Below, piece by piece: positions 2,528-58,535 of a stretch of 64,000 bases of DNA. The notes under the pieces are model-generated. The model saw nothing but the letters and a program-made list of their open reading frames with translations. It did no database searches and was not told where the DNA came from. A program made the translations under genes and the position numbers. Numbering within the stretch: the stretch's first letter is position 1; every line of letters begins with the position of its first letter. The DNA comes from Patescibacteria group bacterium (lineage in GTDB: Bacteria > Patescibacteriota > Minisyncoccia > Phycocordibacterales > Phycocordibacteraceae). The stretch is from NCBI GenBank assembly GCA_040384705.1, contig JAZKIU010000001.1, forward strand, positions 478,053 to 542,052. The letters run 5' to 3'.

Positions 2528-3199
2528 ATGTACCTTCCTGCACACATTGGCGTTATTGCGCTCGCGCTCATTCTTGTCGCTCCGGTACCGACCCATGCCG
2601 CAACGGTGTACGACAATGATCGGTCCTATTTCTCCCGGGAAGAGTACAGGAGCTCCTCCAGCCGACTCTCTTCAAGCCTACGTAACAAGATAAAGAAGCT
2701 CGATGACGATGCCGTAGAGAACCTTCCTATCCCAATCGCACTTGGCGTTGCGCTTCGCAACCTGAGCAAGAACTTCGGTGACGATAGGGATGGCGGAGCA
2801 CGCTCGCACGAAGGCCTCGATATCATGGCGCCTCGTGGTGCCTATATCGCGTCCCCGACCGAAGCGGTAGTCACGCGCACCGGCAAGGGCTCGAGCGCAG
2901 GAACCTATGTCTATACGATGGGCCCAGGAGGCGAGACGTTTGCGTACATGCACTTGGACGGCATTGCAGACGGCATTAAGTCAGGGAGCGAGCTCAAGGC
3001 CGGTGATCTTATCGGATACGTGGGCGACACAGGTAACGCCAAAGGAGGTGCGACGCACCTCCACTTCGAGATACGCGAAGGCCGCAAGGCGACCGATCCG
3101 TTCCCACGGCTTACGAGAGAATTCACTTCAGCGGAACTCATACGCACACTGACAGATGTCGTGGAGGAGCTTCAGGCAGACCTTAAGAGAAAGGACTGA
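2528..3199 (+). CDS. M23 family metallopeptidase (LytM-like)
   Basis: HEGLDI ... GYVGDTGNAKGGATHLHFEIR motifs, with an N-terminal signal/transmembrane segment. Confidence 0.8.
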   Translation: MYLPAHIGVIALALILVAPVPTHAATVYDNDRSYFSREEYRSSSSRLSSSLRNKIKKLDDDAVENLPIPIALGVALRNLSKNFGDDRDGGARSHEGLDIMAPRGAYIASPTEAVVTRTGKGSSAGTYVYTMGPGGETFAYMHLDGIADGIKSGSELKAGDLIGYVGDTGNAKGGATHLHFEIREGRKATDPFPRLTREFTSAELIRTLTDVVEELQADLKRKD

Positions 3200-3248: not shown

Positions 3249-4043
3249 TCAAGCGGTTGATTCTTTCTTCAGGAAACTCGTAAGTACCGGCAGTAGGACT
3301 TTAGTATTCACCATGTGGCTTTGGCCGGGAAGCACGACGAACTCCGAGCCTGGAATGGCCTGTGCTAATTCTTTCCCTACAGCATGAATGCGTTCAGGAT
3401 TCTTCCCTCCAACAGCGATTTGTACCGGCAAGGTGACTTGGGAGGCTCGTTCGATGGGCGGCATATCATCGGTCAAGGCGATATCGTACGCAAGGGTCGG
3501 CGCGAGAGCTACCATAGTCGACCAGCCGGGCATTATCCGAAACAGGAAGACGAATGCTTTCGGAATACCGATGCCTTTCAGGAAACCGGTCATGGCTTCC
3601 GCATTCTTCCCGGCTTCAAGCAGTGAATGCACCTTGCGGCTTAGCTTCTCGTATTCAGCCTTCTCCTCCTCATCGTGCACATAAGGAGGATCGTACATGA
3701 CGACCTTTTGTACTTTGTCAGGCAGACGCAGAGCAGCTTCGAGCGCAAGCACGGCCCCAGAAGAGTGACCGTATAGATAGGCTGTGCCGCCAGCAGCATC
3801 GATCATTGCTTGAATGTCCTCAACCTCACGTTCCACTGCCCACGGGAGCGTATCGGTGCTATCTCCGCGTCCACGACGGTCGTAGTTGTAGACGGTAAAT
3901 TCCTTGGCCAATATCTTGGCGTCATCGACGATCGGCATGAACGAGCGGAAGCAGCTCGCCCCCGTTATGTAGATGAGAGCGGGGCCGCTACCGTACACAT
4001 CGTAGGCTATGTTTGTGCCGTCTTTCGATTGAGTTGTTTTCAT
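3249..4043 (-). CDS. Alpha/beta hydrolase fold protein
   Basis: GHSSGA nucleophile-elbow motif; 264 aa. Confidence 0.75.
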   Translation of the reverse strand: MKTTQSKDGTNIAYDVYGSGPALIYITGASCFRSFMPIVDDAKILAKEFTVYNYDRRGRGDSTDTLPWAVEREVEDIQAMIDAAGGTAYLYGHSSGAVLALEAALRLPDKVQKVVMYDPPYVHDEEEKAEYEKLSRKVHSLLEAGKNAEAMTGFLKGIGIPKAFVFLFRIMPGWSTMVALAPTLAYDIALTDDMPPIERASQVTLPVQIAVGGKNPERIHAVGKELAQAIPGSEFVVLPGQSHMVNTKVLLPVLTSFLKKESTA

Positions 4044-7237: not shown

Positions 7238-7283
7238 AAATAGCCCGGCTTCAGAACGAAGCCGGGCTATTGCTTTTATATAG
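7238..7283 (+). terminator. Rho-independent terminator after rpmA
   Basis: AATAGCCCGGCTTC-AGAAC-GAAGCCGGGCTATT followed by GCTTTTAT. Confidence 0.75.
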
Positions 7284-7346
7284 AAAAGTGATATGGTTGT
7301 GCTTAGAGCGAGGAATATCCTTGCTAAAGAAACTTCCAGCCCTAGA

Positions 7347-8481
7347 GAGGTGTGTCATGCCCTTCATTCGTCAGTTCCTGACCCTGATGGCCTTCGTCAT
7401 CAGCTTCGCGCTTATCGCCTCCCCGGCGTCCGCCGAGGGGATGAACGGCGTGATCAACGCCTGCAAGACCCAGAACATGGAACGGCTCTCCGTGGACGAG
7501 GAAGGTGCGCGTCGGCTTTCTGCCGGCGTCACCATCACGTACAACGGGAAGAACGTTCCCATGGGACGCAACATCTGGAGCTCGTGCGAGGAAATCGTCC
7601 AGTCCAGCGCGCCCATCGTTCGCTCGGATGCTCCGATCGCGCGTCCGCAACCCGCGGCTAAGGTCGATCCTGCTCCGGTCGTCGCCCAGAAGGCGCCGCC
7701 CGCCGTCAAGACCGACCCGGCCGTGAAGGTGCCCTCCGTGGCCGTCACCGAACCGGTGGTGCCCACGGAGACCATCAATGCCTACGCCCGTGCGGCCCAC
7801 AGGGGCCAGCACACCGGCGGGACCGGTCTCATCCGTCACGCTGACGAGATGGTCCGCAACACGAACCGACCCAGCTACTACGACCCGCCGACAGCGCCCG
7901 CATCCGTGTTCATGGAGAGCCTGAAGGGCTCTGTCGCGAGCACGACGGCCTGGCTGTCGAGCCGGAACGACGATGCGCATCGCATCAAGGCTTGGATCGC
8001 GGAGATCCTGCAGCCGTTGCTGACCGACACCAAGCGCGCGGACAAGACCGCGAGCTGGATGACGAAACAGCAAGACGGCGTGCAGAACGCCGCAGCATGG
8101 GTGACTAGCGCCCTGCCGTCCCTACCCGACATCAAAGGCTACGCCAAGCGCGCGCTCGCTTGGACGATTAGCCCGCTCTGGCACCTCGCCATCGTCGTCG
8201 TGGGCGCCATCATCGCCGCGATCGGCATCAGGTTCATCCTGGTGGAACGCGACTACCGGCTGCACCCCGAGAAGTACGAGGAGCTCCCGGAACCCGCGAT
8301 TGACCCTGATACGCTTTGGTCCGCTGTCGAGCTCGAGCTCGAGGAGACCGGCGCCATAAGGCCCGCGGAAGCGCAGCTCGAGGAGACGGAAGAAGTGGAG
8401 GGGCCGGCCATCTTGGCCGCGACCAACTGCAACGACCCCGACTCCCACCCCATCTCCCGTAGGGAACGGATGCTGGGCTGA
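7347..8481 (+). CDS. Secreted/membrane protein: signal peptide, proline-rich linker, C-terminal transmembrane segment and acidic tail; unknown function; high GC3
   Basis: Internal start MPFIRQFLTLMAFVISFALIASPASAEG of ORF 7270..8481. Contains PAAKVDPAPVVAQKAPPAVKTDPAVKVP and a C-terminal LWHLAIVVVGAIIAAIGIRFILV. Codon third positions are almost all G or C. Overlapping shadow ORFs appear in all frames. Confidence 0.55.
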
Positions 8482-8551
8482 AACGCCTCTCATCCTCAGT
8501 CCTTTCTACAGAAAGCACCTTAAGCAAGGCGACGCCCCACCCGGGTCGTCG

Positions 8552-8581
8552 CCTTCTTCATATATATGCGAAAAGCCGCGC
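8552..8581. terminator. Bidirectional terminator hairpin between convergent genes
   Basis: AAAAGCCGCGCATCGCTGCACGGCTTTT. Confidence 0.55.
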
Positions 8582-8619
8582 ATCGCTGCACGGCTTTTCT
8601 TATATGCCCGACGACCGTC

Positions 8620-9533: not shown

Positions 9534-10802
9534 TTACTTCCCGGTCGTAAGGAACTGTATAGCCCGCTCCTTCTGCGGATCCTCCCCTGCGAGCGCCTGC
9601 TCGCGCGTTCGCTCGACTTCTATATCAGGCATGAGCCCGCCGTCCGAAATGGAGCGGCCTCCTGGCGTGAGCCAGCGAGCGACGGTGACTTTCAGTGCTC
9701 CTCCGTTTATCTTCACGAGCTCCTGCACCGAACCCTTACCGAACGAGCGGGTACCGATGAGCGTCGCCTTCTTCTCGTCCTGGAGTGCACCTGCGAGAAT
9801 CTCGGACGCCGATGCCGAACCCTGGTTTATCAAAATGACTACCTTCGTGCTGGCCGGCACACCTCCCTTCCCCGTGCTCCGGTGCACGATGTTCTCCCGC
9901 TTGCCCTTATAGTCCTCGGTGACGACTGCGGCGCCGTCGGGCAGGAAGTGGCTCGCCATAGCGACCGCGGCCTCGAGGTATCCGCCGGGGTTCCCGCGCA
10001 GGTCGATGAGGAGCTTGTCCGAGCCCGACGTACGGAAGCCGGTGATGGCCTTGGAGAAGAGCTGCGCGGAGTTCGCCGTGAAGCTATAGAGCGAGATGCT
10101 GTACACGCCGGTCTTCTGATCGAGGGAGTGCTCGATGGTGGGGACGGTGATGGTGTCGCGGGTGACCGTGATGTCGATGACCTCGCCTTCGCGGAGTATC
10201 TTGAACACTACCTGGCTACCCTTAGGCCCGCGTATAAGCTTCACCGCCTGGTCGGACGAGAGGCCCTCCGTCGATGTGTCGTTTATGGAAAGTATGGCAT
10301 CGCCCGCGAGAATACCCGCGCGCTCCGCAGGCGTGCCCTTGAGCGGCGATATGACGGTGAGCTGCCCATCCTTCACTCCTATCTCCATGCCCACGCCCTC
10401 GAAGTTGCCGGCGATATCGTCCGCGAACAGCTTCGCTTCCTCAGGCGGCATGAATACGGTGTATGGGTCGCCATATGAGTTGGCGAGGCCTTGGATAGCG
10501 CCCCAGAGCTTGGCTTTTGCGGCCGGCATGCTCGAAGAGGCATGAGTCTCGACGAACTTCGCATCGAGCGCGTTCCAGGCCTTCCAGAAATCCGTAAGCT
10601 CGACCGATTCGTCCGGGGTCGCGTCGAGCCCGTCACCGATGAGCGGGAGGTTCGAGAACGCTTTCCCGCTCCCGGCCGCTCCTACCGATATGCCGCCCGC
10701 GAACCCGATAGCGAGCATCACGGCGAACGCGACGCCAAGCTTGGTCGCTTGCGCGAATGTCTGCGCTTTCTTCGGTGGTTTCACCTCGTCCATTAGAGCC
10801 AT
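9534..10802 (-). CDS. ctpA: Carboxyl-terminal processing protease (S41 family, PDZ domain)
   Basis: LIDLRGNPGG, GSASASEILAGALQD and GKGSVQ motifs, with an N-terminal transmembrane segment. Start chosen at an internal Met (MALMDEV / MDEV) to avoid overlap with corA. Confidence 0.85.
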   Translation of the reverse strand: MALMDEVKPPKKAQTFAQATKLGVAFAVMLAIGFAGGISVGAAGSGKAFSNLPLIGDGLDATPDESVELTDFWKAWNALDAKFVETHASSSMPAAKAKLWGAIQGLANSYGDPYTVFMPPEEAKLFADDIAGNFEGVGMEIGVKDGQLTVISPLKGTPAERAGILAGDAILSINDTSTEGLSSDQAVKLIRGPKGSQVVFKILREGEVIDITVTRDTITVPTIEHSLDQKTGVYSISLYSFTANSAQLFSKAITGFRTSGSDKLLIDLRGNPGGYLEAAVAMASHFLPDGAAVVTEDYKGKRENIVHRSTGKGGVPASTKVVILINQGSASASEILAGALQDEKKATLIGTRSFGKGSVQELVKINGGALKVTVARWLTPGGRSISDGGLMPDIEVERTREQALAGEDPQKERAIQFLTTGK

Positions 10803-10870
10803 TATATCACGCGTGCATATACCCATCAGTGGACTTCCCGCCTCGTGCACCACGGTATACTGGAAACCAC

Positions 10871-11785
10871 ATGATAAATCGACACGTCCGCGGCCCCGTC
10901 ACCTGGGTCGACCTCGAGGCCCCTACGAGCGAAGAGCTTTCTGCGGTGATGACCGAGTTCGGTATCGATAACCGCATCGAGGAGGAGATAGCGAGCCCGA
11001 CGCCCTACCCGCTCACGCTCGCTACCCCTGACTACCACTACCTCATCCTGCACTTCCCTGCGGCTGAAGCGACGGAGGGCACCAAGAACCAGGAGGTGGA
11101 CTTCATCGTCGGCAAGAACTTCGTCATCACAGCCCGCTATGAAGTCATCGATTCCATCCTTGCCTTGCACCGGGTGTTCGAGGCGGAAGAGCTCGTGAGC
11201 ACCCCGACCGCGACCCATGCGGATGTCCTCCTTGAACAGGTCATGACCCGCCTCTATGGCGCCATACACGACGAGATAGAACGCGCGGGGCGTGCGCTCG
11301 ACCGTATAGAGCACGACATATTCGCCGGAAAAGAACGCCAGACGGTGCGCACCATCTCGCATGCGGGACGCGCCCTGCTTCGCTTCGAGACCGCGCTCGC
11401 TCGCCATGAGGAACCGCTCGATGAATTCCTTGCGGGACTCGCCTCAGGCGATTTCTTTAGTAAGCGGTTCACGGTGCGCGCCGCGCGCATCCGCGCCGCC
11501 CACGATCATGCCACCGCGCTCGTTGCGTCATACCGCGCCGTCACCCGTGAGCTTCGTATAACGAACGATTCGCTCCTCTCCTCGTCCCAGAACGAGGTCA
11601 TGAAGACTCTCACCCTCATCGCGGTCGCCGCCATGCCTATGACCCTCATCGCCTCCGTGTTCGGTATGAATGTCGTGCATATGCCGCTTGCGAACGACCC
11701 GGCAGGGTTCTGGGTCATACTCGGCATCATGCTCGGGGCCGCGCTCGTGCTCTACCTCTTCTTCCGCTTGAAACGCTGGTTCTAG
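10871..11785 (+). CDS. corA: Magnesium/cobalt transporter CorA
   Basis: C-terminal transmembrane helices with the FGMNVVHMP (GMN) motif. Start at MINRHVRGPV. Confidence 0.85.
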   Translation: MINRHVRGPVTWVDLEAPTSEELSAVMTEFGIDNRIEEEIASPTPYPLTLATPDYHYLILHFPAAEATEGTKNQEVDFIVGKNFVITARYEVIDSILALHRVFEAEELVSTPTATHADVLLEQVMTRLYGAIHDEIERAGRALDRIEHDIFAGKERQTVRTISHAGRALLRFETALARHEEPLDEFLAGLASGDFFSKRFTVRAARIRAAHDHATALVASYRAVTRELRITNDSLLSSSQNEVMKTLTLIAVAAMPMTLIASVFGMNVVHMPLANDPAGFWVILGIMLGAALVLYLFFRLKRWF

Positions 11786-21228: not shown

Positions 21229-21295
21229 ACCATAATTGACGCACGATGCTTCAAGGACTATCATCCGCCGAGCTGAACCATTGGGGAGATGACGG

Positions 21296-21484
21296 ATGCA
21301 GTACGTGGTACCTTTCGTGACTCGGGAATTCGTTGATTTGCACGTCCGCTTGCACGCACGGGACGCGATTCGTTTTTCCCGCATGTCTCGCGACTTCCGC
21401 AACCGAGGCGAGCATGATAAGGCTGAGCATTGCCTTGGCCTTGCGAAGGTATACCTTCGCAGTGCGAAGCAGCCCTGCCGCTAG
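21296..21484 (+). CDS. Possible small Arg-rich protein (62 aa)
   Basis: TTGACG-N17-TATCAT promoter-like sequence at about 21238-21266. Weak protein-like character. Confidence 0.2.
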   Translation: MQYVVPFVTREFVDLHVRLHARDAIRFSRMSRDFRNRGEHDKAEHCLGLAKVYLRSAKQPCR

Positions 21485-21542
21485 CGTCTACCGACCGGAT
21501 TATGGAGCGGCACTCTTCCGATGACCATCAAGGAGACGTGTT

Positions 21543-21680
21543 ATGTGTACCTTTAGCGAGCAACCAGTGTCGATCGGAGAATCGGGGATCGAGGCGCTGC
21601 GGGCGTTCGATCCGTATCCTCCAGAAACAGAGGAGTGCGGCCAACTGATACGGCCGCCTACTACCCCACCGGAGCGGTAG
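21543..21680 (+). CDS. Possible 45-aa peptide with a strong SD
   Basis: AAGGAGACGTGTT then ATG. Sequence MCTFSEQPVSIGESGIEALRAFDPYPPETEECGQLIRPPTTPPER. An intrinsic terminator follows. Confidence 0.3.
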   Translation: MCTFSEQPVSIGESGIEALRAFDPYPPETEECGQLIRPPTTPPER

Positions 21681-21687
21681 GACCTGA

Positions 21688-21717
21688 TCGAAGAATTGAG
21701 GCCGCCCAGCTCCGGGC
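21688..21717 (+). terminator. Rho-independent terminator
   Basis: GGCCGCCC-AGCTCC-GGGCGGCC followed by TTTTCG. Confidence 0.7.
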
Positions 21718-21798
21718 GGCCTTTTCGATTGGCCCCTCGCTTCTTCCATGGTATAAAACCACCTAAGACCTATCGCGCATCAGTGAAGGTTTTGCATT

Positions 21799-21870
21799 GG
21801 CTCCATCGTCTAACGGTTAGGACAGATCCCTCTCACGGATCAAATCGGGGTTCGATTCCCCGTGGAGTCA
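21799..21870 (+). tRNA. tRNA-Glu (anticodon CTC)
   Basis: Cloverleaf folded by hand. Acceptor GGCTCCA/TGGAGTC, D-stem GTCT/GGAC, anticodon stem GATCC/GGATC with loop CTCTCAC, T-arm CGGGG-TTCGATT-CCCCG. CCA is not encoded. Confidence 0.8.
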
Positions 21871-21963
21871 CAATTTGCTTATAATAGCTTCTGTGTTAAT
21901 ATGAAATTGCGTAGGTCACCCCTGACCTGCGCGATTTCATTTTGTTTCAAAGGAGAGTCGCGA

Positions 21964-22302
21964 ATGGCTTATCAAAGCGAGAAGTGGAAGCTGCTGTGTT
22001 CCGGTGTCGTGAACGATGGTGCGCCCGGCAATCGCCTGGCCGCCGTCTACCAGAAAGGCAGTGAGCTCAAGCGCGTGGCCACGGCCGTCGACGGCCCGCT
22101 CATCGTGAGCGAGGCCACGTTCGACCTGGACTCGATCAGCGGCCCCAATGACTACTGGGAGCTGGTCGCGAGCGGCGTCGTGGACTCTAACGCCAACGGC
22201 GTGAACCTGGTCATGCTCTTCCAGAACGACGGGAAGGTCGCCACGCTGCGCACGGCCGCGAACACCGGCTTCAAGCTCGGCGCCGAGGAGCTCGTTCTTT
22301 AG
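21964..22302 (+). CDS. Hypothetical 112-aa protein (high GC3) immediately 3' of tRNA-Glu
   Basis: SD AAAGGAGAG before the ATG at 21964. The ORF-track N-terminal extension runs into the tRNA. A terminator follows. Confidence 0.55.
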   Translation: MAYQSEKWKLLCSGVVNDGAPGNRLAAVYQKGSELKRVATAVDGPLIVSEATFDLDSISGPNDYWELVASGVVDSNANGVNLVMLFQNDGKVATLRTAANTGFKLGAEELVL

Positions 22303-22326
22303 GTTCTTTCTGAACAGCCCCTCAAA

Positions 22327-22358
22327 CGGGAACCCCAGGCCATTGGCCTGGGGTTTTG
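22327..22358 (+). terminator. Rho-independent terminator
   Basis: CCCCAGGCC-ATT-GGCCTGGGG followed by TTTTGTTATTT. Confidence 0.75.
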
Positions 22359-22377
22359 TTATTTCAAATAAATGCAC

Positions 22378-27448: not shown

Positions 27449-27883
27449 ATGACGAGCCAAGCGAAGTCCAAGTTCTTCGTGGCCTACGACAACGACCAGG
27501 TCGCGCTGCAGGCGTTGAAGATCCTCCATCGACTCGGATTCCAAGCTCATCAACTTGATGAGGGGGTTCCGCCGCCGAAGGACGCGGTGTTCATCTTCTC
27601 GAGCGACGGCAGGTTCGCGAGCAAGTTCATCGCGACGAAGCCGGAGCAATACGAGAAGCGCGGCATCATGCCGCCGGCTACTGCGGCGAAGGCTCTCCAA
27701 CTCCTTCCCATCAGGAAGGCGGAGCGCGGGTTGCCCTATGGGGCGCCCCGGGAAGAAAATCTCGCCCGGGCTCTCGAGATCTTCGTCGGCTACGAACGCG
27801 AGCGGACTCCGAAGCCCAAGCGCAACCGGCGCGAGGAAAGCAAGCGGCGCAGACGAGAGAATCTCGAATACGCGTGTCGCTGA
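27449..27883 (+). CDS. Hypothetical protein (145 aa) with a basic C-terminal tail
   Basis: SD GGGAG 7 nt upstream of the ATG. The ORF-track N-terminal extension covers the hairpin and is unlikely to be coding. Confidence 0.5.
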   Translation: MTSQAKSKFFVAYDNDQVALQALKILHRLGFQAHQLDEGVPPPKDAVFIFSSDGRFASKFIATKPEQYEKRGIMPPATAAKALQLLPIRKAERGLPYGAPREENLARALEIFVGYERERTPKPKRNRREESKRRRRENLEYACR

Positions 27884-35852: not shown

Positions 35853-36554
35853 TTATCTTACCAAATTAACCGGAGTAACGAGTAATAGGTGCTCGAATAT
35901 GAGCTTGAGGGGTGCCGAGCGCTCATGGAGGATAGGGGTGAACGTATCGAGCTCATGGAGGAGTCGGGTGAGCTCCTCATCATTTCCCTTCCCTCGGGCG
36001 CCATACGCCGCACGCGTAAGATCCTCGACGATGTGGAGCGCTTCGGCACGAGCCGCCTGCTTCTCCTCATCCTTGTCCGACTTAGCTCTATCAAGAAGTT
36101 TCGATACCATCTTCGCTCGTGCGTCGGCATCCGCTTCGATGAACGGGTGGAGCGCCGGTACTTCCGATTTCTGACCGGGGAGCGCGAGGAGGCGCGAGCG
36201 CATCGTGGGAAGGAGCACCCCTTCGGTAGGTACGACAAGAATGAGTGTCGTCTCTTCGGGCGGTTCCTCGAATACTTTCAGGAGCGCGTTCTGCGACTCG
36301 TGGAAAAGACGCTCCGCTGCGATGACGATGAGCTTGCGATCGCCGAGCGCTTTGCGGGATGCGGACTCCACGACACGTCGAGCGTCCTCTACGGGGAAGA
36401 GGCCATAGCGGTAGAGGACGACGTCCGGATTCCCGACTGGATTAAGCCCGAGCTCCTGCGCTCCCCAGGCAAAAGCAGACTCTATCCCTCGGTCGATATC
36501 GCCAGTCACCAGGTATGCATGATGGGCCATACGGCTAGTGTACACTTTATCCAT
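35853..36554 (-). CDS. holB: DNA polymerase III delta' subunit-like (HolB; AAA+ clamp-loader subunit)
   Basis: Internal start MDKVYTSRMAHHAYLVTG.... The N-terminal extension of the ORF track (to 37199) overlaps a convincing + strand gene and is rejected. Confidence 0.7.
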   Translation of the reverse strand: MDKVYTSRMAHHAYLVTGDIDRGIESAFAWGAQELGLNPVGNPDVVLYRYGLFPVEDARRVVESASRKALGDRKLIVIAAERLFHESQNALLKVFEEPPEETTLILVVPTEGVLLPTMRSRLLALPGQKSEVPALHPFIEADADARAKMVSKLLDRAKSDKDEEKQAARAEALHIVEDLTRAAYGARGKGNDEELTRLLHELDTFTPILHERSAPLKLIFEHLLLVTPVNLVR

Positions 36555-36572
36555 AGCCCTAACCTCTTTCGT

Positions 36573-37043
36573 ATGAATCAGAAAGTAGCTATCGGGATAG
36601 TCGTCGTGCTCGCGCTGCTTGCGGGCGGGTACCTGTGGTACACGAACCAATCCGGCGCATTCATGAGTGCGGATGATACAGGCTACATGGCCTCGACTAC
36701 CGACGGGACGCAGCGTACCGCGACCCCTGCCGAGATCCAGAACGGGGTCGAAGGCAACTGGAGGAGCGCTGACGATGCGCGCTTCACCCGCACGTTCAAT
36801 GCGGACGGTACCATTACCGATCGGTATGAAGGCATGGAAGATGCAACGGTGAGCGGGCACTGGGAGCTTAACTCCGATCATATGCCGGGCCAGGTGCGCG
36901 AGCTCGCGAACGGCATGCCCGTCCTGAGCATCGAATTCCCCGAAGAAGCGCTTTTCTTCGTCGTCACTAAGCTGGGCGCGACTGAGTTGGAAATGTCGTA
37001 TGTAGGTGGTGCGGGTAAGACGCTTCGTTTCGAGCGTATCTAA
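36573..37043 (+). CDS. Membrane-anchored or secreted hypothetical protein (156 aa)
   Basis: Internal start MNQKVAIGIVVVLALLAGGYLWY (transmembrane/signal) within ORF 35889..37043. Confidence 0.5.
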   Translation: MNQKVAIGIVVVLALLAGGYLWYTNQSGAFMSADDTGYMASTTDGTQRTATPAEIQNGVEGNWRSADDARFTRTFNADGTITDRYEGMEDATVSGHWELNSDHMPGQVRELANGMPVLSIEFPEEALFFVVTKLGATELEMSYVGGAGKTLRFERI

Positions 37044-37180: not shown

Positions 37181-37675
37181 ATGCGCTTCCTGTATGCACT
37201 TTTCATCCCCGCCCTCCTCTGCGCCACCAATGTTGACGCCGAGGAGCAGAAGGATCCGTCGTTCTACGCCACGCCGAGCGTCTCGGGCGAGCCGTGGAAA
37301 CCGCTCGACTTCTCGAGCGCTTCCCAAGCGCCCGTGACCAGCCCGCTCTACGTGCCGCCGCTCGCGATAAACGACGCGAAGGCGACCGGGCCGGTCAGCG
37401 TCCGCATCATGCCGTATCGGCATCTGCAGGACCGCCTGTACGAGGCGCGCGACTCGTACGACGAGGGCCAGGAAATCTTCATCGAGTACCGGCCCTACCC
37501 GCAATCCGCCTTCGCCCGCATCGGCCTTAAGCTGTGGGACGATGTGTGGGACGGGAAACGGATCCGGGAAGAAGTTCGGGGCGGCGCTCGCTCACCGCTG
37601 CTCCGGACGCCGGACGAGAAGTCCGGGAAGCTGGAGTTCGTCTTCCCGCTCTGCTACGGCCGCGTGAAATGCTGA
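37181..37675 (+). CDS. Secreted hypothetical protein (signal peptide; high GC3)
   Basis: MRFLYALFIPALLCATNVDA signal peptide. A terminator follows at about 37696-37724. Confidence 0.5.
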   Translation: MRFLYALFIPALLCATNVDAEEQKDPSFYATPSVSGEPWKPLDFSSASQAPVTSPLYVPPLAINDAKATGPVSVRIMPYRHLQDRLYEARDSYDEGQEIFIEYRPYPQSAFARIGLKLWDDVWDGKRIREEVRGGARSPLLRTPDEKSGKLEFVFPLCYGRVKC

Positions 37676-37695
37676 ACGCTCAGGCGTTCAGATAT

Positions 37696-37725
37696 ATAGA
37701 AGGCCCGCCCTCACCGGCGGGCCTT
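37696..37725. terminator. Rho-independent terminator (bidirectional)
   Basis: GGCCCGCC-CTCACC-GGCGGGCC followed by TTTTTC. Confidence 0.7.
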
Positions 37726-43642: not shown

Positions 43643-44620
43643 ATGTACAAGAAGACCGTTGCGTTCCTGCTTTCTTTGATGGCAGTGACTTACCTCTATG
43701 CCGCTCCCGCGTTGGCGGAGGAAGCGCTCGACGTGCCCATCGCTACCGCGCCCCTGGAGAATGAGGTCGCGGAGGGCGATATCCAGCACGAAGAGCCCAT
43801 CCTCCTATCCTCCGCTCCGGGCTTCAGTGGGCCCTGGCTTCGAAAGCTCGATCCCCCGACCTGTTCCGGTACGGCCGCCCTCGGCGTCCAGGCCGGTTAC
43901 TTCTACCCCAACTATGGGATGGACGTCGCCAACAACAAGCCGACATCGCAGGGCGCGGTGACGGGCACCTGCGAGGACTTCACGGCGGAGGTGGGCGGCT
44001 CCAAGCTCCTTTCCTCCAAGGAAGGGAGCTATAGCGAGCGGCTCGCGAACGAGTGGTGGGTGCGCGCGACCTATCACCCGGAGTTCAAGACGCGTATCGG
44101 GAGGTTCCGCTTCGAAGCCACGGTCGTGTACCGCGGTCTCGACCACGGCCAAGGCCTGGGAGCGACCCGGGACGACTCCACTGAACTTGTCGGCGGAGTC
44201 GGGTATCTCATGACGTTCGGCTCCTTCGAGGTCATGCCCTGCATCCGCTCGGTCAAGTCCAATCCGGTCGGGTACAACAACTCGCTGTACTGGGCCGGCG
44301 AATGCCTCGGGATCAGGGGGCCGCTCCCCGGCGACGGCACGTTCCGCATGAATTTCAACTACATGCATAACGTGAACTCCGTTACGGCGGTCATCCACCG
44401 GAACGTGCTCTATGGCTCCATTGAGGGAAGCAAGCAGCTTCCCGGCCAGGCCTGGACCATCACGGCCGGCTTCTGGTTCTCGCAGTACGGGGAGCAGGAC
44501 AGCCGTTTCGGTATCCTCATCGATCGCGACGGCCGGATGAACCGCATCAAGACGGATGTCGGCCCCTCGAGCCAGAAGATGGTGATCAACCAATATGTGC
44601 GCATTTCGCGCACGTTCTAG
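43643..44620 (+). CDS. Secreted hypothetical protein (signal peptide; high GC3), 326 aa
   Basis: MYKKTVAFLLSLMAVTYLYAAPALA signal peptide. Upstream TTGACA-N17-TATAAG promoter and an SD. A terminator follows. Confidence 0.6.
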   Translation: MYKKTVAFLLSLMAVTYLYAAPALAEEALDVPIATAPLENEVAEGDIQHEEPILLSSAPGFSGPWLRKLDPPTCSGTAALGVQAGYFYPNYGMDVANNKPTSQGAVTGTCEDFTAEVGGSKLLSSKEGSYSERLANEWWVRATYHPEFKTRIGRFRFEATVVYRGLDHGQGLGATRDDSTELVGGVGYLMTFGSFEVMPCIRSVKSNPVGYNNSLYWAGECLGIRGPLPGDGTFRMNFNYMHNVNSVTAVIHRNVLYGSIEGSKQLPGQAWTITAGFWFSQYGEQDSRFGILIDRDGRMNRIKTDVGPSSQKMVINQYVRISRTF

Positions 44621-44639
44621 ATAAAGACGAATAGCACTG

Positions 44640-44669
44640 GCCGCCCCACCGGGCGGCCATTCTTTTCAT
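44640..44669 (+). terminator. Rho-independent terminator
   Basis: GGCCGCCCC-ACC-GGGCGGCC followed by ATTCTTTT. Confidence 0.7.
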
Positions 44670-46243: not shown

Positions 46244-46915
46244 ATGAAGCTTTCGACTATTTTCGCGGCTACGGTCGCCGCTACCTGCCTGTTCGCCGGG
46301 TCCGCTAGCGCGGACGTGGTGACCTACAACACGGCGCCGACGGATCCCTATGACTACGGCTCCGGCAACAACTACGCGCCGTCGAACTCCGGAGTGCTCA
46401 GGACCACGGCCGGCGACGAGCTCGCCCTGCGCTTCCACGAGACCTTCCAGACGGCGCCGGCTTCGGTCGGGAAGAACTACTACTTCACCCTCGGCGCCGG
46501 CAAGCAGCTCAGCTTCGACTGGCTGATCGACACCACCGGCACCGGCGGGTTCGACGACGTGACGGCGGTTCTGACCCTCACCAACATCAACACCGGCGGC
46601 GTCTTCAGCTACAATCCGCTGGGGACGCCCGACAACCGGCCGGTCCAGTTCGACAGCCTGAGCAACAGCGCGCGGGTGAACTGGTTCGCCGTTCCGCTAC
46701 TGGGCTTCGATACGGCGATCGACGGCACCTACAACGCCAAGCTGGAGGTCAACGGTCTGATCGGCGGGCCGAAGTCGTTCGACATCAACGCGGTGTTCGG
46801 CGCCGGCTCCGCGGTCCCGGAACCCGCCACCTGGGCGATGATGATCATCGGCTTCGGCGGCGTGGGCTCCATGGTGCGCGCCAATCGGCGGCGCCAGGTC
46901 CTCGTCTTGGCGTAA
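46244..46915 (+). CDS. PEP-CTERM sorting-domain protein (PEPxxWA variant) with N-terminal signal peptide
   Basis: C-terminus VPEPATWAMMIIGFGGVGSMVRANRRRQ: PEP motif, transmembrane helix, then an Arg cluster. High GC3. Confidence 0.75.
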   Translation: MKLSTIFAATVAATCLFAGSASADVVTYNTAPTDPYDYGSGNNYAPSNSGVLRTTAGDELALRFHETFQTAPASVGKNYYFTLGAGKQLSFDWLIDTTGTGGFDDVTAVLTLTNINTGGVFSYNPLGTPDNRPVQFDSLSNSARVNWFAVPLLGFDTAIDGTYNAKLEVNGLIGGPKSFDINAVFGAGSAVPEPATWAMMIIGFGGVGSMVRANRRRQVLVLA

Positions 46916-47094
46916 GCCACGGCAACCAATCAAGCACCTTTCGCTTCGGCGATACATCGGCGGGTCCCACGGACCCGCCGATTCTTTTTATCCCACCACC
47001 GCCCAGCTATTGCCTCATTTGATTTAGAGTGGTAAAGTCACGCCAGTTCCATAACCAGTACATTCCGTAATCAGGCACTCGAAAGGAGCCCGAA

Positions 47095-47709
47095 ATGAAG
47101 CGTTTCTCTTGCGTTGCAGCCGCGATTGCGGCCCTCTGCCTCTCGGCCACCGCCGCCAACGCGGCTAACCGAGTCACCTTCGAAGGCATCATCGACCGTG
47201 GCGTCGACGCCGACGAGATCTTCGGTAAGGGTCTTGATCTGGATGGCCTTTCGTTCACGGCCAGCTACGTCTTCGACGCCGACCTCGGCGTTCGCGTGAC
47301 CGAGCCCGGGTCCGACACCCTCACGACCGGCGTGACCTCGCCGTTCACCACGGTCAGGTTCACCATCGGCGGAGTGACCCGCTATCTGGACATGATCGCC
47401 GGCGGCACGAGCATCACGGGCACGACGATTACGTTCAACGCCTTCCCGGATCCCGACGACGCCCTGACCATGCACATGACGTCGGCCGCGATTCCCCCAC
47501 TGCTCACCACGCCGTTCGGCCGCACGGCCGGCTCCGGCTCCGGCAACGTCGAGTTCCCCAACGGCTACGGGTACTTCAGCACCTACTACGTGACGAACGA
47601 GTCGCTCTCGGCCATCCCGGAACCCGCCACCTGGGCCATGATGATCGTCGGCTTCGGCCTGGCCGGCTCCGCGCTTCGGCGCAGCCGGAACATCCCGGTC
47701 GCCGCCTAA
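47095..47709 (+). CDS. PEP-CTERM sorting-domain protein (PEPxxWA variant), second copy
   Basis: C-terminus IPEPATWAMMIVGFGLAGSALRRSR. Signal peptide MKRFSCVAAAIAALCLSATAANA. Strong SD AAAGGAG. Confidence 0.75.
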   Translation: MKRFSCVAAAIAALCLSATAANAANRVTFEGIIDRGVDADEIFGKGLDLDGLSFTASYVFDADLGVRVTEPGSDTLTTGVTSPFTTVRFTIGGVTRYLDMIAGGTSITGTTITFNAFPDPDDALTMHMTSAAIPPLLTTPFGRTAGSGSGNVEFPNGYGYFSTYYVTNESLSAIPEPATWAMMIVGFGLAGSALRRSRNIPVAA

Positions 47710-47824
47710 GTCAGGCACGGGCAAATACTAGGGCCGCCACCTCCTTTCGGAGCTGGCGGCCTTTCTCATTACATACGAAAACAGCTCCGCATATAGCGGA
47801 GCTGTTTTCAGCTTACATTCCCTG

Positions 47825-50800
47825 CTATTGCGCTGCCGCCGTCGCGTTCAGGAGTCCTTGGGTCTTTGGACCCACTTCCCCTACTGCTTCAAGCGCGCTG
47901 GCTGCCTGGAACTTCATGACCGCTTCTTTCGTAGCTGGTCCGTAGTATCCGGTGATTTCCGGATAGGTGTAGTGCCCGAGCTTCCGGAGGAGCTCCTGGA
48001 GCGCTATCACTTCGGCGCCGGTCGCGCCCTGCATGAGCCGCTTCGTGAAGACATAGGCACGTACCGCCCCTGCGACCGAACCGCCGTTGCCCTGAGCGAA
48101 CGATCCTGCTGCGAGGCTCGCTACTTCGCCTGCCGAGAGCGCACGGTTGTAGATGCGGAAGTCGTCGATGAGGCCCTGGAAGGCATAGTCGGCACGGGAA
48201 GAATCGAATCCTATACCCATCTTGAGCAGCTTCTGGTTGAGCAACCCGAAGTTAGCCTTGGTTCCAGACCCTACCAGCACTCCGTCCACATAGAAGGCGG
48301 AGTTATCGCCATCGAGGGTGCCGGCGAGGTGATACCACCGGTTGAGCGCCATCGGAGCGGTCTTAGGGGCCCCCGCTCCGGCAGTGGTCGTTGCGTCGCT
48401 CCACACTACTCCAGGACCGCCGCCGTAGTTGCCCGCGGCGAAGTGCGCGCTGTAATCGACGGTGTTGCTCGAAGCGGTGCGGCCGTGCACGAATGCGTAG
48501 TTGAGGGAGCCTGAGAGGTCACGAGCGTTGACCCACATAGCGACCGTTGCGCGGTCCGTAATATTGAGGTCGGAGAGCGGGATGGTACCGATGACGGCAC
48601 CCTGTTTCCGCGTGTTCATCGAGAGCGCTTCTCCCGACTTTCCCGCCACGATGGTCGCACCGTTCGTGAGCGTCGCGATGTGGTTGTTACCGGAGATGTC
48701 GCGGACAACGCTGCTGAAGACGGTCGCATTGTCGAAGCTGAACCGTATGACCGGACCGACTGAATTTACTGCCGGTATCTTCGGCTTCGAAGAGGTCACG
48801 AGCACTTTCACCTGGCAGGTGTTGGTGCCGCCGGCTCCCGTCACCGTTGCGGTGTAGCCGGTGGAATCGAACGGCGTGACCGAGACCGTGCCGTTCACGG
48901 CGATGGAGCCGACCCCGTTATTGATGCTTGCTGATGTCGCGCCCGTGCTTGCAAGCGTAAGCGTCGCCGACGTATCGCGTTCGATGGATATCGCGCTGGT
49001 GCTGAGCGTACAGGTCGGCGGGTTGGTACCGGTCGCGCCTGCGGTCGGTGCCGAGCCCGTCGGGAACGAGCCCGCACCCTTCCCGTCGATTATGGATCCT
49101 GCCTTAGGACGGAGGTCGAAGGTGGCGGTCGTCTTGTCGAATACCCGGAACACGCTCGTCGGGTCGCTTATCGAGAAGTTGTTCTCGGAAAGCACGACTG
49201 GAATGGTCCGGATGGTGACCGCGATGTTGTTACGGAGGATGGTGTTCGTCGGCACGATGGTCGATGACTTCCCCTCGTCAACGGTTATCCAGCTGTTCGC
49301 GCCGTTGTTGGTGTAGTTCACGACGGTGTTGTTCGCGATGAGCGAATCGCGCGCAGCGGTCGTGATGCCGTGCCATACCGACGTGATGATGGTGTTGTTC
49401 GTTACCTTGAAGTTGGTGAGTGGTCCATCGAAGTGCCCGATGCCCTGCATGCCGCCGATGTATGCGCGGTTAGGGTTCGTGGTCTCCTGTATCCAGTTCT
49501 TATCCAGCACGATGTTGTCCTGCGCGAAGCCTTCGAGAGCGAACATCTGGATGCCGTCATCGTGGTTCGCGTCACCATCCTTGCTGCCCAGGTACTGGTC
49601 ATACATGAAGTTGCCGCGCATGGTGATGTCGGAACCGATAGGGCGCATGCCGTCGGCGGAGAAGTTACGTATCTCGTTCCCTTCCACCAGGATCTTCTGG
49701 CGGCTATCGGCGACGTTCGTAGCATCGCTGAGGAATGTCATGCCGGCGCGGATATTCGAGAGCTTGTTGCGGAGTACCGCCACGCACTTCGCGTTACGCG
49801 TCGAGATACCCGAGGACGCCGCGAGCCACTCAGTAGGGCCCCAACCTGATGTGTTGCGCGTGGTGTACATCTCGGAGTCGGCAAGGACCATTTGCCCGCC
49901 ATTGCCGAATGAGACGAATCGCACGCCCGTACCGGTGAATTCACCGTTCGTAATGAGCCAGCGGTTCATGTCCTTCAGGTCCATGCTCTTCATCACCGCG
50001 CCTTCCCTGAAGTCGATCCAGATCCACTGCGTCGTACCCACGAGGTATGAGGTGGTGTATCGGTTCACGACGAGAGAGCCGTGGTCGCCAGGAAGGAGCA
50101 CGACGCGGTCCCCTCCTTGGGTCTTCCTTCCGTTCACGAAGAGCTGCAATGTCTTGTACGGCTTCGCGAGCGAACCATCACCGGTCGTGTCGTTACCCAG
50201 CACCGGATCGATGTAGATGGTGCGGAGGTACGACGTCGCTGGCGCTTCGCAGCCTGGGTACACCTGGTAGGTACCGGGCGAGGTCGAAGGCGTCGGGGTC
50301 GGCTGGGTCACGCTTGTCACTCCGACCGACACTGATTTGCTGACCGTACCTCCCGCTCCGGTGCAAGCGAGGGTATAGGTCGAAGGGGCGGTTATGTTAG
50401 TGACGGCCTTCGAACCGCTCGTTGCGAGCGTGCCGGTCCAGTTGCCGCTTGCTATACAGCTTGTAGCGTTCACGGCGGCCCAGGTAAGGGTCGCGCTCCC
50501 GCCCGAGGTGACGGACGAAACGTTTGAAGTAAGCGTGAGCGTCGGTGCTGAGGCCGGGCTGACGACGGTCACGACGACTTCTTTCGCAACGCTTCCTCCT
50601 GCACCCGTACACGTGAGTGCATAGGTCGAAGGCACCGTTATGCCGGAGACCACCTTCGAGCCGCTTGCTGCGAGGGCACCGGTCCAGCTACCGGATGCGG
50701 TACAGCTCGTTGCATTCGTTGCGGCCCAGGTAAGGGTCGCGCTTCCGCCGGACACCACCGACGCGGCGCTCGAAGTGAGCGTAAGCGTTGGAACTGCTAC

Positions 50801-56817: not shown

Positions 56818-57096
56818 ATGAGAACGAAAAGGAAGCTTTGGTTCCGTGCGAAACGCTTCGGCTGGGGGTGGTACCCGAGTAGCTGGCAGGGGTGGGCGGT
56901 GACCGCGCTTTTCTCCCTTCTCTATGCCCTTTCGGCGGTCGTTTTCGGTGCATTCGCCCCTGCGGTGGTCCAGGCGGGCGGTTCGGTCGTGGAGGGCACG
57001 ATTCTCTTCATCTCCGTGATTATCCTCCTTTCCGCTGGGCTTTTGGCCATCTGTTACCGGTATGGGGAGAAGCCGGGGTGGCGTTGGGGTAAATGA
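56818..57096 (+). CDS. Small membrane protein with N-terminal KRFGWGWYP motif
   Basis: 92 aa; two transmembrane segments. A terminator-like hairpin follows at about 57196-57223. Confidence 0.5.
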   Translation: MRTKRKLWFRAKRFGWGWYPSSWQGWAVTALFSLLYALSAVVFGAFAPAVVQAGGSVVEGTILFISVIILLSAGLLAICYRYGEKPGWRWGK

Positions 57097-57284
57097 TGAT
57101 ATCCCCATTTTCTTGAAAACTTCATCTTGGGGAAGTATAATTCCCGCATAGCGCAAGCTATCCTCGCCTATAGGATAATAGGATTGTATTTTTTCCCAAT
57201 CCCGGCTTAACCGCCGGGATTGGTCGTCTTTACATATTCCAATATGCTCTTAAGTGGGTCGGCAGGTATAAAGAGATCGGAGTT

Positions 57285-57803
57285 TTGGTGAAGCTCCTGG
57301 CTAACATAATTTCTCGCACAAACTGTAATTATCTTTTTCTTCTTGCGGTCGTTATGGGCATGCTTGCATTGCTCGCCACCATCGTGCTCGTCGCTATTAA
57401 CCCGCTTCGTCAATTCGCACAGGCGCGTAATTCGCAACGTGAGGCAAATGTTACCGCCGTTCTTGATGCTGTGGGGCACCGTCTCGCTGATAACCGCGGT
57501 ATATTCGAGGACGCTACGGGCGATTGTTCATCGACGCTCCCAGGAACTGCCACTCAGATAAATGACACTACTGGTTACGACCTTCGTCCCTGCCTCGTTC
57601 CCACCTATATTGCGGAGCTTCCATTCGACCCAAGCAAAGGAACCAACACTTGTGTCTCGACCGGTTGCAGTGGAGCAGGAGAAGGCTACGATACCGCGTA
57701 TACACTTCTCCAGAACGCCTCTACCTCCCGCATCACCGTCTGTGCGCCTTTTCATCAAGAATCTGATCTTCCTGGATCCGTTCCCTTCTGTCTCACACGA
57801 TAG
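57285..57803 (+). CDS. Type IV pilin-like protein with a degenerate prepilin N-terminus
   Basis: After the transmembrane helix, ...IVLVAINPLRQFAQARNSQREANVTAVLDAVGHRLADNRGIF matches the pilin pattern AR...R..DL......AL..Y..DNG.YP. C-terminal Cys pairs are present, but the G-F-T-L-I-E cleavage motif is absent (..NCNYLFLL..). Confidence 0.45.
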   Translation: MVKLLANIISRTNCNYLFLLAVVMGMLALLATIVLVAINPLRQFAQARNSQREANVTAVLDAVGHRLADNRGIFEDATGDCSSTLPGTATQINDTTGYDLRPCLVPTYIAELPFDPSKGTNTCVSTGCSGAGEGYDTAYTLLQNASTSRITVCAPFHQESDLPGSVPFCLTR

Positions 57804-57930
57804 ATTCTTGCACTTGTTCACCTTAGACCCCTTATCTAGCACATACTATGAATTACCTTGATCAAATTCCGGTCCTTTTCTCGAAAACAGGGGTTCCAGC
57901 AAGAAAGAACTTCTTTGTTATAATCTAGAT

Positions 57931-58458
57931 ATGGAGCCCCTGCTCATACAGGTTGGTTGGGAATACTTTCTTGGCGTCATGCTCGCTCTCATAACGGTTG
58001 CGTGGTATTCAAGTGGTCGCTTCACGAAACTCGAGACCTCAATGGAATGGGTACGGGAGACTCTCGGCGAGCTCAAGGTGAATGCGGATAATGCCCGCAC
58101 GCCAGTATTCGCTGCCCACTCTCCAGTGAATCTAAACGCACTCGGCGAGACATGGCTGGTTGAGAGCGGTCTCAAAGAGTATATAGATGCCAGAACCACT
58201 GACTTCGTCGGCTTCTGCAAGGAAAAAAGAGATACAAATCCCTACGAAGTCCAGAAACACGTCTTTCAACTGATGGACACGTACCTATTTGATCAAGCCT
58301 TTGATGACAAGCTAAAAAAGTTTGCGTATGAGAAAGGAACATCAATGGCAGTCATACGTCGGATGGCTGGAATCTATATACGGAATCTTTGCCTGGAGGA
58401 CTTCGGTATGAACCGAGACGATATAGACATTCACGACCCTGAAAGAGTAAATGAGTAA
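57931..58458 (+). CDS. Hypothetical protein with an N-terminal transmembrane segment (175 aa)
   Basis: Lies in a patch of lower GC; no recognisable domain. Confidence 0.4.
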   Translation: MEPLLIQVGWEYFLGVMLALITVAWYSSGRFTKLETSMEWVRETLGELKVNADNARTPVFAAHSPVNLNALGETWLVESGLKEYIDARTTDFVGFCKEKRDTNPYEVQKHVFQLMDTYLFDQAFDDKLKKFAYEKGTSMAVIRRMAGIYIRNLCLEDFGMNRDDIDIHDPERVNE

Positions 58459-58535
58459 CTGCTCTATGTTACCCGCTTGAGTACGTTAACTAAACACTCA
58501 GCATATGAGGCCGAGTGTTTAGTGCCATAAAATTC

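Follow-up and report, generated by a model that had tools for sequence, protein, structure and literature searches.

Foreign-looking codon usage in a probably resident, hypervariable gene for a predicted surface protein of a Patescibacteria genome

Results

The gene between rpmA and rplI

The DNA analysed here, referred to as the window, is a 64,000-nucleotide stretch from a Patescibacteria group bacterium (NCBI GenBank assembly GCA_040384705.1, contig JAZKIU010000001.1, positions 478,053 to 542,052 of the forward strand). The gene in question, hereafter the focal gene, occupies positions 7357-8481 on the plus strand, in the gap between the convergent genes for ribosomal proteins L27 (rpmA) and L9 (rplI). 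Its codon usage looks foreign, but the evidence presented below makes it probable that this is a resident, vertically inherited and hypervariable surface-protein gene of Paceibacteria, within the candidate phyla radiation (CPR), and not a recent import. The locus contains the following features; coordinates are those of the window throughout, lengths of proteins are in amino acids (aa), GC3 is the GC content at third codon positions, and dN and dS are the non-synonymous and synonymous divergences.

7239..7271, plus strand: intrinsic terminator of rpmA (L27); 14-bp stem, 5-nt loop, then GCTTTTAT; dG -26.3
7357..8481, plus strand: focal gene, predicted type-I membrane-anchored surface protein; 374 aa, GC3 0.85, dN/dS 0.55-0.70, mosaic alleles
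7357..7434, plus strand: signal peptide, aa 1-26, MPFIRQFLTLMAFVISFALIASPASA/EG; read from the translation, conserved in orthologues and family
7435..7611, plus strand: N-terminal head domain, aa 27-85; invariant Cys36, Ala51, Trp74 and Cys77, and an EEGAR motif (alignment A2)
7612..7767, plus strand: Pro/Ala/Val-rich stalk, aa 86-137; predicted disordered, predicted local distance difference test (pLDDT) < 50
7768..8175, plus strand: helical middle ectodomain, aa 138-273; pLDDT 65-75
8176..8244, plus strand: single transmembrane (TM) helix, aa ~274-296, LWHLAIVVVGAIIAAIGIRFILV; from a hydropathy scan, kept in nearly all family members
8245..8478, plus strand: charged acidic tail, predicted cytoplasmic
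8528..8553, plus strand: terminator hairpin of the focal gene, GGCGACG...CGTCGCC then TTCTTCAT; dG -18.7
8571..8598, no strand assigned: weaker hairpin, GCCG...CGGC between AAAA and TTTT; read by eye, below the scan thresholds

A first-pass annotation of this DNA had placed the gene at 7347-8481. The stop at 8481 stands, but 7347 is out of frame, and the best start is ATG 7357, which has a ribosome-binding site (GAGAGG, then 7 nt) and yields a product of 374 aa. The protein features named in that annotation, a signal peptide, a proline-rich stretch, a TM segment and an acidic tail, were all found in this product by reading and in alignment A1, and so were the two intrinsic terminators around the gene, hairpins at 7239-7271 and 8528-8553 that are each followed by a T-run. 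The former is the strongest terminator within 1-20 kb and forms the upstream boundary of the focal unit, which is monocistronic and has its own terminator. The weaker hairpin at 8571-8598 probably serves rplI, which converges on the minus strand. A promoter for each such cassette, as had been claimed, could not be substantiated: sigma-70-like matches do not exceed their frequency in shuffled sequence, and upstream of 7357 there is none.

Structure prediction with AF2 gave a mean pLDDT of 35.7 when three sequences were used, while a run with 16 family sequences resolved the head domain only, as a helix, a short helix, a beta-hairpin and a helix with pLDDT ~94 for aa 30-85; the rest of the protein was predicted to be helical at lower confidence. 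Foldseek returned no match to the PDB at E < 2 (best E 2.4), and the protein has zero matches in Pfam-A (E up to 5) and NCBIfam. It contains no PEP-CTERM motif and is unrelated to that family. The two invariant cysteines of the head may form a disulphide, and the sequence suggests a role in contact with host cells, or as a target that hosts or phages recognise, with selection being either diversifying or relaxed.

Two long open reading frames (ORFs) run antisense within the focal gene on the minus strand, 7342-8073 (243 aa) and 8122-8493 (123 aa). They arise because TTA, CTA and TCA are avoided at high GC3 and were not counted as genes; similar antisense ORFs are also seen in the family genes of other species.

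A codon dialect shared by six genes

All ranks given here refer to 79 gene calls made in the window with a codon-model ORF picker. The gene content of the window (L27, L9, L21, DnaB, RecR, RmuC, a MraZ-MraW-PBP-MurF block, MreB, GreA and Frr) fits a Paceibacteria/Parcubacteria-type CPR organism, and its GC content averages 58.6%, with 52-63% per kb except for a dip to 0.49-0.50 at 57-59 kb. GC3 ranges from 0.51 to 0.92 among the genes, and the corresponding value for synonymous sites (GC3s) has a window mean of 0.740 and a standard deviation (sd) of 0.069. The native dialect is itself unusual for 58.6% GC: ATA makes up 33% of the Ile codons and 80% of the AT-ending ones, and CTC dominates Leu usage, with CTG at just 16% of CTC+CTG.

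The focal gene, at a GC3 of 0.85 compared with 0.73 in each of rpmA and rplI, shows the bias towards G/C-ending codons relative to its neighbours that had been described for it; the ATA and AGA codons ascribed to those neighbours are absent (zero ATA and zero AGA in both). Its GC3s of 0.843 ranks 8th of 79, +1.5 sd from the mean, and lies +0.10 above the 0.739 expected from its amino-acid composition (z = 4.6), so that amino-acid composition was rejected as the cause of the excess. GC3 is not uniform across the window, and the six genes that the first-pass annotation had singled out, named here by their first positions, occupy GC3s ranks 1 (46244), 2 (47095), 3 (21964), 5 (37181), 8 (the focal gene) and 9 (43643).

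These six genes also make different codon choices from the other 73. ATA accounts for 2 of their 69 Ile codons versus 336 of 1007 elsewhere (p = 2e-9), and for 2 of 11 ATA+ATT codons versus 80% (p = 3e-5), while CTG accounts for 41 of 87 CTG+CTC codons (47%) versus 16% (p = 1e-10). GTA is missing from all 105 Val codons (0/11 of GTA+GTT versus 60%), there is almost no GCA, and GCC is favoured over GCG. The focal gene alone has 1 ATA in 26 Ile codons, a CTG:CTC ratio of 10:9 and no GTA among 28 Val codons, each differing from the rest at p < 1e-3, and just 0.06 A at third positions. When every gene was scored with a leave-one-out codon model built from the other five, the six were recovered as six of the top seven (log-likelihood ratio of the focal gene +31), the seventh being 27449-27883. 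Native genes of high GC3 (RmuC, a PBP, MreB, DnaB, MurA and RNR), on the other hand, keep ~33% ATA and a predominance of CTC, with ATA/Ile at 13/27 in RmuC, 15/33 in the PBP and 10/31 in MreB; the six genes differ from this subset as well (ATA p = 1e-7, CTG p = 6e-10). A strand effect was rejected as the source of the dialect, because other plus-strand genes use the native one. The compositional class is real and coherent.

The accompanying idea of a recurrent cassette, with high GC3, a signal peptide, a promoter and a terminator, survives in part. High GC3 holds for all six genes, while a signal peptide is lacking in 21964, promoters were not found, and a terminator of its own does not set a gene apart, being present after 26 of the 45 genes whose 3' gap measures at least 50 nt. 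Nor is secretion the defining trait, as the secreted products of 995, 1369, 2528, 47825, 54717 and 56027 come from genes of average or low GC3, and no upstream motif shared among the six genes was found. Since 21964 and 27449 have no signal peptide and other secreted genes have ordinary GC3, the members are better called accessory genes in variable slots. The wider class is heterogeneous and comprises alphaproteobacterial imports (the PEPxxWA-CTERM pair, 46244 and 47095) plus orphans.

Distribution of the focal family and its slot

A word-indexed search of 5.8e9 proteins returned the focal protein itself and two orthologues of 77% and 67% identity, and nothing else. Both of these sit between L27 and L9 in the sister genomes L002 and L003, so that the site is not vacant in close relatives, and orthologues were found in that position in L002-L005. 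A profile search of 1.84 billion representatives added about a dozen weak matches (E 2e-6 to 8e-4) with the full architecture, that is a signal peptide, a head with C36/A51/W74/C77 and EEGAR, a Pro/Ala stalk, a TM helix and a charged tail. The two named matches belong to Candidatus Paceibacterota and to Parcubacteria bacterium C7867-007. The one match outside CPR, P0124, a 2910-aa Bacteroidota-type protein of the type IX secretion system (E = 7e-10), was rejected as a weak 56-aa resemblance amplified by repeats.

The slot was surveyed by an L9-anchored scan of GTDB species representatives, which yielded ~60 related genomes, using a hidden Markov model built from the family N-terminus. L9 and L27 are convergent and adjacent in nearly all of them. 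In 13 further species, with L9 identities of 61-99%, a family match (E 4e-28 to 3e-4) lies exactly in the L27-L9 gap and in the window orientation, and at least four additional species have ORFs with a signal peptide and a Cys pair in the gap. Most other gaps are empty and measure 70-250 nt; in the window's lineage the gap is either empty or holds one family member. The family can be defined by a signal peptide, a C...EEGAR...W..C head, a Pro/Ala stalk, a single TM helix, a charged tail and its rplI-rpmA location, all of which the focal gene has. A few species (L023, L055, L061 and L064) carry unrelated opposite-strand genes in the L9-L27 gap (712 aa in L061, 171-177 aa in L055 and L064), which makes the slot a more general insertion point.

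The codon offset is a property of the family. The slot gene exceeds its conserved neighbours in GC3 in 13 of the 13 further species (mean +0.16, Wilcoxon p = 0.0002) over a range of neighbour GC3 from 0.40 to 0.75, and the slot genes of these species likewise avoid ATA and shift from CTC towards CTG. For the focal gene, the proposed acquisition from a higher-GC donor, possibly the host, is contradicted by homologues that all lie within its own lineage and occupy the same slot in the 13 further species; its named relatives are exclusively Paceibacterota and Parcubacteria, which on the annotation's own terms speaks against such a donor. No hallmarks of mobility (an integrase or transposase, flanking direct repeats, a tRNA target) were found near the gene, where repeats of 12-19 nt are at chance level.

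Fast and mosaic evolution of the focal gene

Compared with its two sister genomes, the focal gene has a dN of 0.13-0.20 and dN/dS values of 0.55 and 0.70, whereas 13 neighbouring genes show dN/dS of 0.011-0.146 against the same sisters; the focal dN is about ten-fold higher. By domain, dN/dS reaches 0.9-1.3 in the head and the stalk/linker, with ~0.9 for the head between the window and L003, and dN at or above dS for the stalk between the window and L002. The reading frame is preserved with in-frame indels across the three genomes. Synonymous divergence between the sister genomes already amounts to 0.4-0.8.

At larger distances, pairs of genomes whose L9 and L27 are 95-99% identical have family N-termini that are just 48-68% identical. 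Nevertheless, family similarity peaks in those pairs (rho 0.30, p 0.004). Family similarity tracks the relatedness of the ribosomal proteins, which therefore points to a vertically inherited gene that diverges very fast.

The three alleles are mosaics. In the 5' part (7437-7830) the window is like L002 and unlike L003, while in the 3' part (8131-8615) L002 equals L003 (92-100%) and the window is 66-81% identical to both. The tail segment (8245-8478) and the 3' untranslated region of the window show 66-75% DNA identity to both sisters, and identity in the flanks of the gene stays at 88-98%. Recombination thus occurs at the locus, which combines segments that differ in ancestry.

Other genes of the class and their slots

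The remaining dialect-like genes outside the PEP-CTERM pair are the following.

21964..22302, plus strand: class gene 2, 112-aa orphan without a signal peptide, just after tRNA-Glu(CTC); hairpins with T-runs at 21901-21940 and 22329-22357
27449..27883, plus strand: further dialect-like accessory gene, 144 aa, without a signal peptide, inserted between mraZ and greA
37181..37675, plus strand: class gene 3, 164-aa secreted orphan between mreB and a holB-like gene; terminator 37695-37724
43643..44620, plus strand: class gene 4, 325-aa secreted orphan ending in ...RISRTF, 0.5 kb downstream of tRNA-Asn; terminator 44638-44659

No identifiable donor emerged for 21964, 37181 and 43643, whose proteins have no match in Pfam (E up to 5) or NCBIfam. 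A search with the three proteins fused as one query gave a single match, but did not return the self matches either and is hardly informative for 37181 and 21964. The 43643 protein has an 85% orthologue in the close relative L171 and one 43% homologue elsewhere, on a 1.4-kb contig. In relatives whose MreB is 70-82% identical, 37181, 43643 and the PEP-CTERM pair are missing and mreB is directly followed by the holB-like gene; mraZ and greA, similarly, are adjacent in the relative L087.

Several observations concern the slots themselves. The interval truB - tRNA-Glu(CTC) - murF (21229-22377), which holds the 21964 orphan in the window, is a variable slot, and in L087 (6572-11477) the same truB-murF slot contains five accessory genes including a PEPxxWA-CTERM protein. 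The 21901-21940 hairpin that follows tRNA-Glu(CTC) has an 18-bp stem and a T-run. Synteny with the closest MreB-anchored relative, L091, stops at tRNA-Asn, and the window from 43.1 kb to at least 48 kb has no counterpart there; tRNA-Asn may border a lineage-specific region. The holB-like gene (DNA polymerase III delta') lies at 35853-36530 on the minus strand and shares 43% identity with the gene found after mreB in relatives. A 384-aa plus-strand ORF at 35889-37043, a 372-aa gene in a public annotation, is mostly antisense to it, and the real plus-strand gene is probably 36573-37043, with 156 aa and an N-terminal TM helix.

The PEP-CTERM pair

46244..46915, plus strand: PEPxxWA-CTERM protein 1; GC3 0.92; terminator 46956-46982
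47095..47709, plus strand: PEPxxWA-CTERM protein 2; GC3 0.88; terminator 47727-47762

Both proteins score above the curated cut-offs, with 29.6 and 29.7 bits for PF07589 (cut-off 20.7) and 48.1 and 52.3 bits for NF035944 (cut-off 35), and both have an N-terminal signal peptide, read from the translation, and a C-terminal PEPATWAMMI-GFG-...-RR anchor. This 31-aa anchor is all that proteins 1 and 2 have in common. No exosortase-like polytopic ORF was found in the 64-kb window, in which the only proteins with at least five TM helices are 33777 (RseP-like site-2 protease by its HExxH) and a queuosine-precursor transporter.

Protein 1 has 506 homologues of 40-54% identity over the full length, and the four taxon names among the matches listed are all Sphingobium or Sphingomonas. 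Its best match was located on a contig of 67% GC, next to a Tn3 transposase and a resolvase, and this contig has the codon dialect of the six window genes. A close match, P0010, sits in a pckA-chvI-chvG-hprK-rapZ neighbourhood, a setting typical of Alphaproteobacteria, while another homologue, P0006, belongs to another Patescibacteria metagenome-assembled genome according to a cluster look-up. In a neighbour-joining tree the three CPR PEP-CTERM sequences are not monophyletic, which is weak evidence given the star-like shape of the tree. The distant Paceibacterial genome L087 carries its PEPxxWA-CTERM gene near tRNA-Glu/murF, the slot of 21964 in the window, at a GC3 of 0.69 versus 0.43-0.57 in its neighbours.

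The cluster is also present in L171, there with three PEP-CTERM genes. The L171 allele of protein 1 is 80% identical in the signal-peptide DNA and 94% in the anchor DNA, while the ectodomain has no DNA match and 48% protein identity: close relatives have exchanged this part of the allele. Homologue taxa, contig composition, gene context and this swap make repeated exchange with an alphaproteobacterial pool the best reading for the pair, so that the proposal of repeated horizontal acquisition from a higher-GC donor applies here, where Sphingobium/Sphingomonas homologues and a 67% GC contig support it, and fails for the focal gene. A tblastn search of PLSDB plasmids with the PEP-CTERM proteins and 43643 gave no match, and nothing was found in the literature on PEP-CTERM proteins in Patescibacteria.

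A 101-nt direct repeat (46807-46907 and 47607-47707, 72% identical) encodes both anchors; a search for att-like direct repeats found nothing else above chance level. The extra PEP-CTERM gene of L171 is bounded by the 101-nt repeat, which therefore seems to be a site where recombination adds and removes genes, and a public short-read assembly breaks exactly at it (end of L006). The queuosine-precursor transporter gene (TIGR00697, 45374-46078) stands amid the dialect-class genes and is missing in the otherwise collinear L171.

Further observations in the window

The strongest compositional outlier towards AT is the gene at 57931-58458, which lies in the lowest-GC stretch (57000-59000) and has a GC3 of 0.51 and ATA at 6 of 8 Ile codons. 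A pair of low-GC3 genes, 2528-3199 (GC3 0.62; secreted and M23-type peptidase-like by eye) and 3249-4043 (GC3 0.57; alpha/beta-hydrolase-like by eye), is missing in L002 and L003 and forms an AT-leaning accessory insertion, opposite in composition to the high-GC3 genes that had been flagged. The plus-strand corA gene (best start 10871, region 10757-11785) is overlaid by minus-strand ORFs of 193 and 74 aa, which a naive GC3-based ORF picker chose over corA, so that ORF lists mislead at such GC. The gene at 47825-52006 encodes a 1393-aa secreted protein with three PG_binding_1 domains, a LamG-like domain and tandem Ig-like repeats; its L171 counterpart was called at 1023 aa, reflecting either a difference in repeat number or a collapse of repeats in the assembly.

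Discussion

Origin of the focal gene and of its codon usage

Slot synteny, the persistent GC3 excess, the tracking of organismal relatedness and fast mosaic evolution together argue for a resident hypervariable surface-protein locus and against un-ameliorated host DNA. A Sec signal peptide would export the small head domain, which would be carried on a ~50-residue proline-rich stalk followed by a helical region, while one TM helix would anchor the protein and leave its acidic tail in the cytoplasm. Homologous recombination primed by the conserved flanks would create the patchwork alleles. Bacteria reportedly undergo recombination-associated GC-biased gene conversion, which Lassalle and colleagues are said to have described in 2015, and I infer that conversion of this kind, linked to recombination and combined with weak codon adaptation, is the most likely cause of the GC3 excess and of the lost native codon habits. 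A cause intrinsic to the locus is favoured for two reasons: a donor signature could not last where even sister genomes are 0.4-0.8 apart at synonymous sites, and a shared allele pool should not lie above every recipient genome.

Several points weigh against this interpretation. The focal dialect is essentially that of the foreign-looking PEP-CTERM genes and of the 67% GC donor-type contig, and composition alone would admit a foreign origin of the gene. The fast-evolving or accessory genes 1369, 16212, 2528 and 3249 have no high GC3, so that fast evolution alone is insufficient as a cause. The slot is empty in most species, and several gains are conceivable in place of many losses. The protein is poorly predicted outside its head. 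Lastly, the surface location, the disulphide and the host-binding role are predictions from sequence alone.

Among the alternatives, the one that survives best, although it is unlikely, supposes that the slot has repeatedly been overwritten by alleles of GC-richer Paceibacteria through the L27/L9 flanks, so that the composition is that of the donor lineages. The 3' third of the window gene, at 66% DNA identity to the sisters compared with 88-98% in the flanks, would be consistent with such replacement, as would the analogous swapping of ectodomains at the PEP-CTERM locus and the weak correlation between the GC3 of family genes and that of their neighbours (rho 0.41, p 0.14). However, alleles drawn from a common pool are expected to lie near the lineage average, and the slot genes were above their neighbours in 13 of 13 species, the GC-richest included; moreover, the closest family pairs are found in the closest organisms.

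Acquisition of the focal gene as a cassette from a GC-richer donor, perhaps the host, with its GC3 as an un-ameliorated donor signature, is very unlikely. The dialect of the gene does differ from the native one at p < 1e-3 on its own and matches that of the PEP-CTERM genes and the 67% GC contig; the gene is monocistronic with its own terminator among housekeeping genes, and the slot is empty in most relatives. Against this, no homologue outside CPR was found among 5.8e9 or 1.84e9 proteins, the same slot is occupied in at least 13 species with L9 identities of 61-99%, and the GC3 excess is present in all 13, including genomes with a neighbour GC3 of 0.40-0.43. In addition, family similarity follows organismal relatedness, and there are neither flanking direct repeats nor an integrase.

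Translational selection would make the six genes very highly expressed surface proteins and their dialect a set of optimal codons. C-ending codons are indeed enriched (C at third positions 0.47-0.62 versus ~0.40), and ATA is scarce also in L27, L9, Frr, GreA and MraZ. Still, this account has hardly any credit, as ribosomal and other presumably highly expressed genes keep GTA, GCA, GGA and CTC at a GC3 of 0.72-0.73, two class members are small non-secreted orphans, and a highly expressed gene would not typically show a dN/dS of 0.55-0.70. An artefact, whether from noisy sampling of GC3, a wrongly called frame or chimeric assembly, might be suspected from the wide range of GC3 (0.51-0.92) and the mere +1.5 sd of the focal gene, but is next to impossible given the highly significant GC-neutral codon contrasts, the leave-one-out recovery of all six genes, a frame kept with in-frame indels in three genomes, and the same arrangement assembled independently in NCBI, Logan and ENA data.

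With vertical inheritance of a hypervariable gene as the preferred reading, several implications follow for Paceibacteria/Parcubacteria, whose hosts and surface biology are almost wholly uncharted. Atypical GC3 alone is an unsafe basis for calling horizontal gene transfer (HGT) here, since a resident gene looks foreign across at least 13 species. The focal gene defines an uncharacterised CPR-restricted surface-protein family with a confidently predicted small head and a fixed, easily located slot, and the gene in the L27-L9 slot is a convenient marker of diversification among strains. PEPxxWA-CTERM proteins of the sphingomonad type are encoded by at least two distant Paceibacterial genomes, plus a close relative at the same locus, and are being swapped, which gives a concrete lead on the interaction partners of these cells. 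A speculative and rather improbable extension is that this Paceibacterial genus lives on Sphingomonadaceae and re-samples the PEPxxWA-CTERM repertoire of its host, with ectodomains swapped between conserved signal-peptide and anchor segments, and that these proteins, jointly with the one in the L27-L9 slot, make up a fast-turnover coat for attachment or mimicry. If true, the shared GC-rich dialect would mark genes of the symbiont-host interface and could serve to predict the hosts of uncultured CPR from genome sequence alone.

Comparison with known systems

Integron cassettes resemble the class in that they, too, are single ORFs poor in promoters, with an imperfect inverted repeat behind each. 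They were nevertheless rejected as a model: the repeats of the window are ordinary, mutually unrelated GC-rich hairpins with T-runs, that is terminators, with no common core sequence and no attC core; the window contains no integrase, and no tandem array exists except for the PEP-CTERM pair.

Proteins with PEPxxWA-CTERM (NF035944) or PEP-CTERM (PF07589, TIGR02595) anchors are exosortase-sorted surface proteins of Sphingomonadaceae and other Gram-negative bacteria. The window pair is like them in having a signal peptide and an anchor above both curated cut-offs, and unlike them in residing in a ~0.64-Mb Patescibacteria genome, with no exosortase in the 64-kb window. Neither an outer membrane nor exosortase-dependent sorting would be expected in such organisms.

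The class shares with HGT islets its atypical dialect, its single genes with terminators and its variable slots, two of which adjoin tRNA genes. It departs from them in that the phyletic and synteny tests indicate a long residence of the focal gene in the lineage, that the offset of the focal family is reproduced in 13 species, which an amelioration model does not predict, and that the window has no integrase, transposase or flanking repeats.

There is also a likeness to hypervariable or contingency surface loci, as the focal gene combines conserved ends and flanks with a hyper-divergent middle, mosaic alleles, high dN/dS and raised GC3. The differences are that neither a repeat-mediated phase-variation machinery nor a silent cassette archive was seen at the focal locus, that the link between recombination and GC3 is a putative one for the focal gene, and that its family has no characterised member. 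The focal gene is an uncharacterised example of a familiar kind, the hypervariable anchored surface protein, and its twist is a codon composition that persistently looks foreign.

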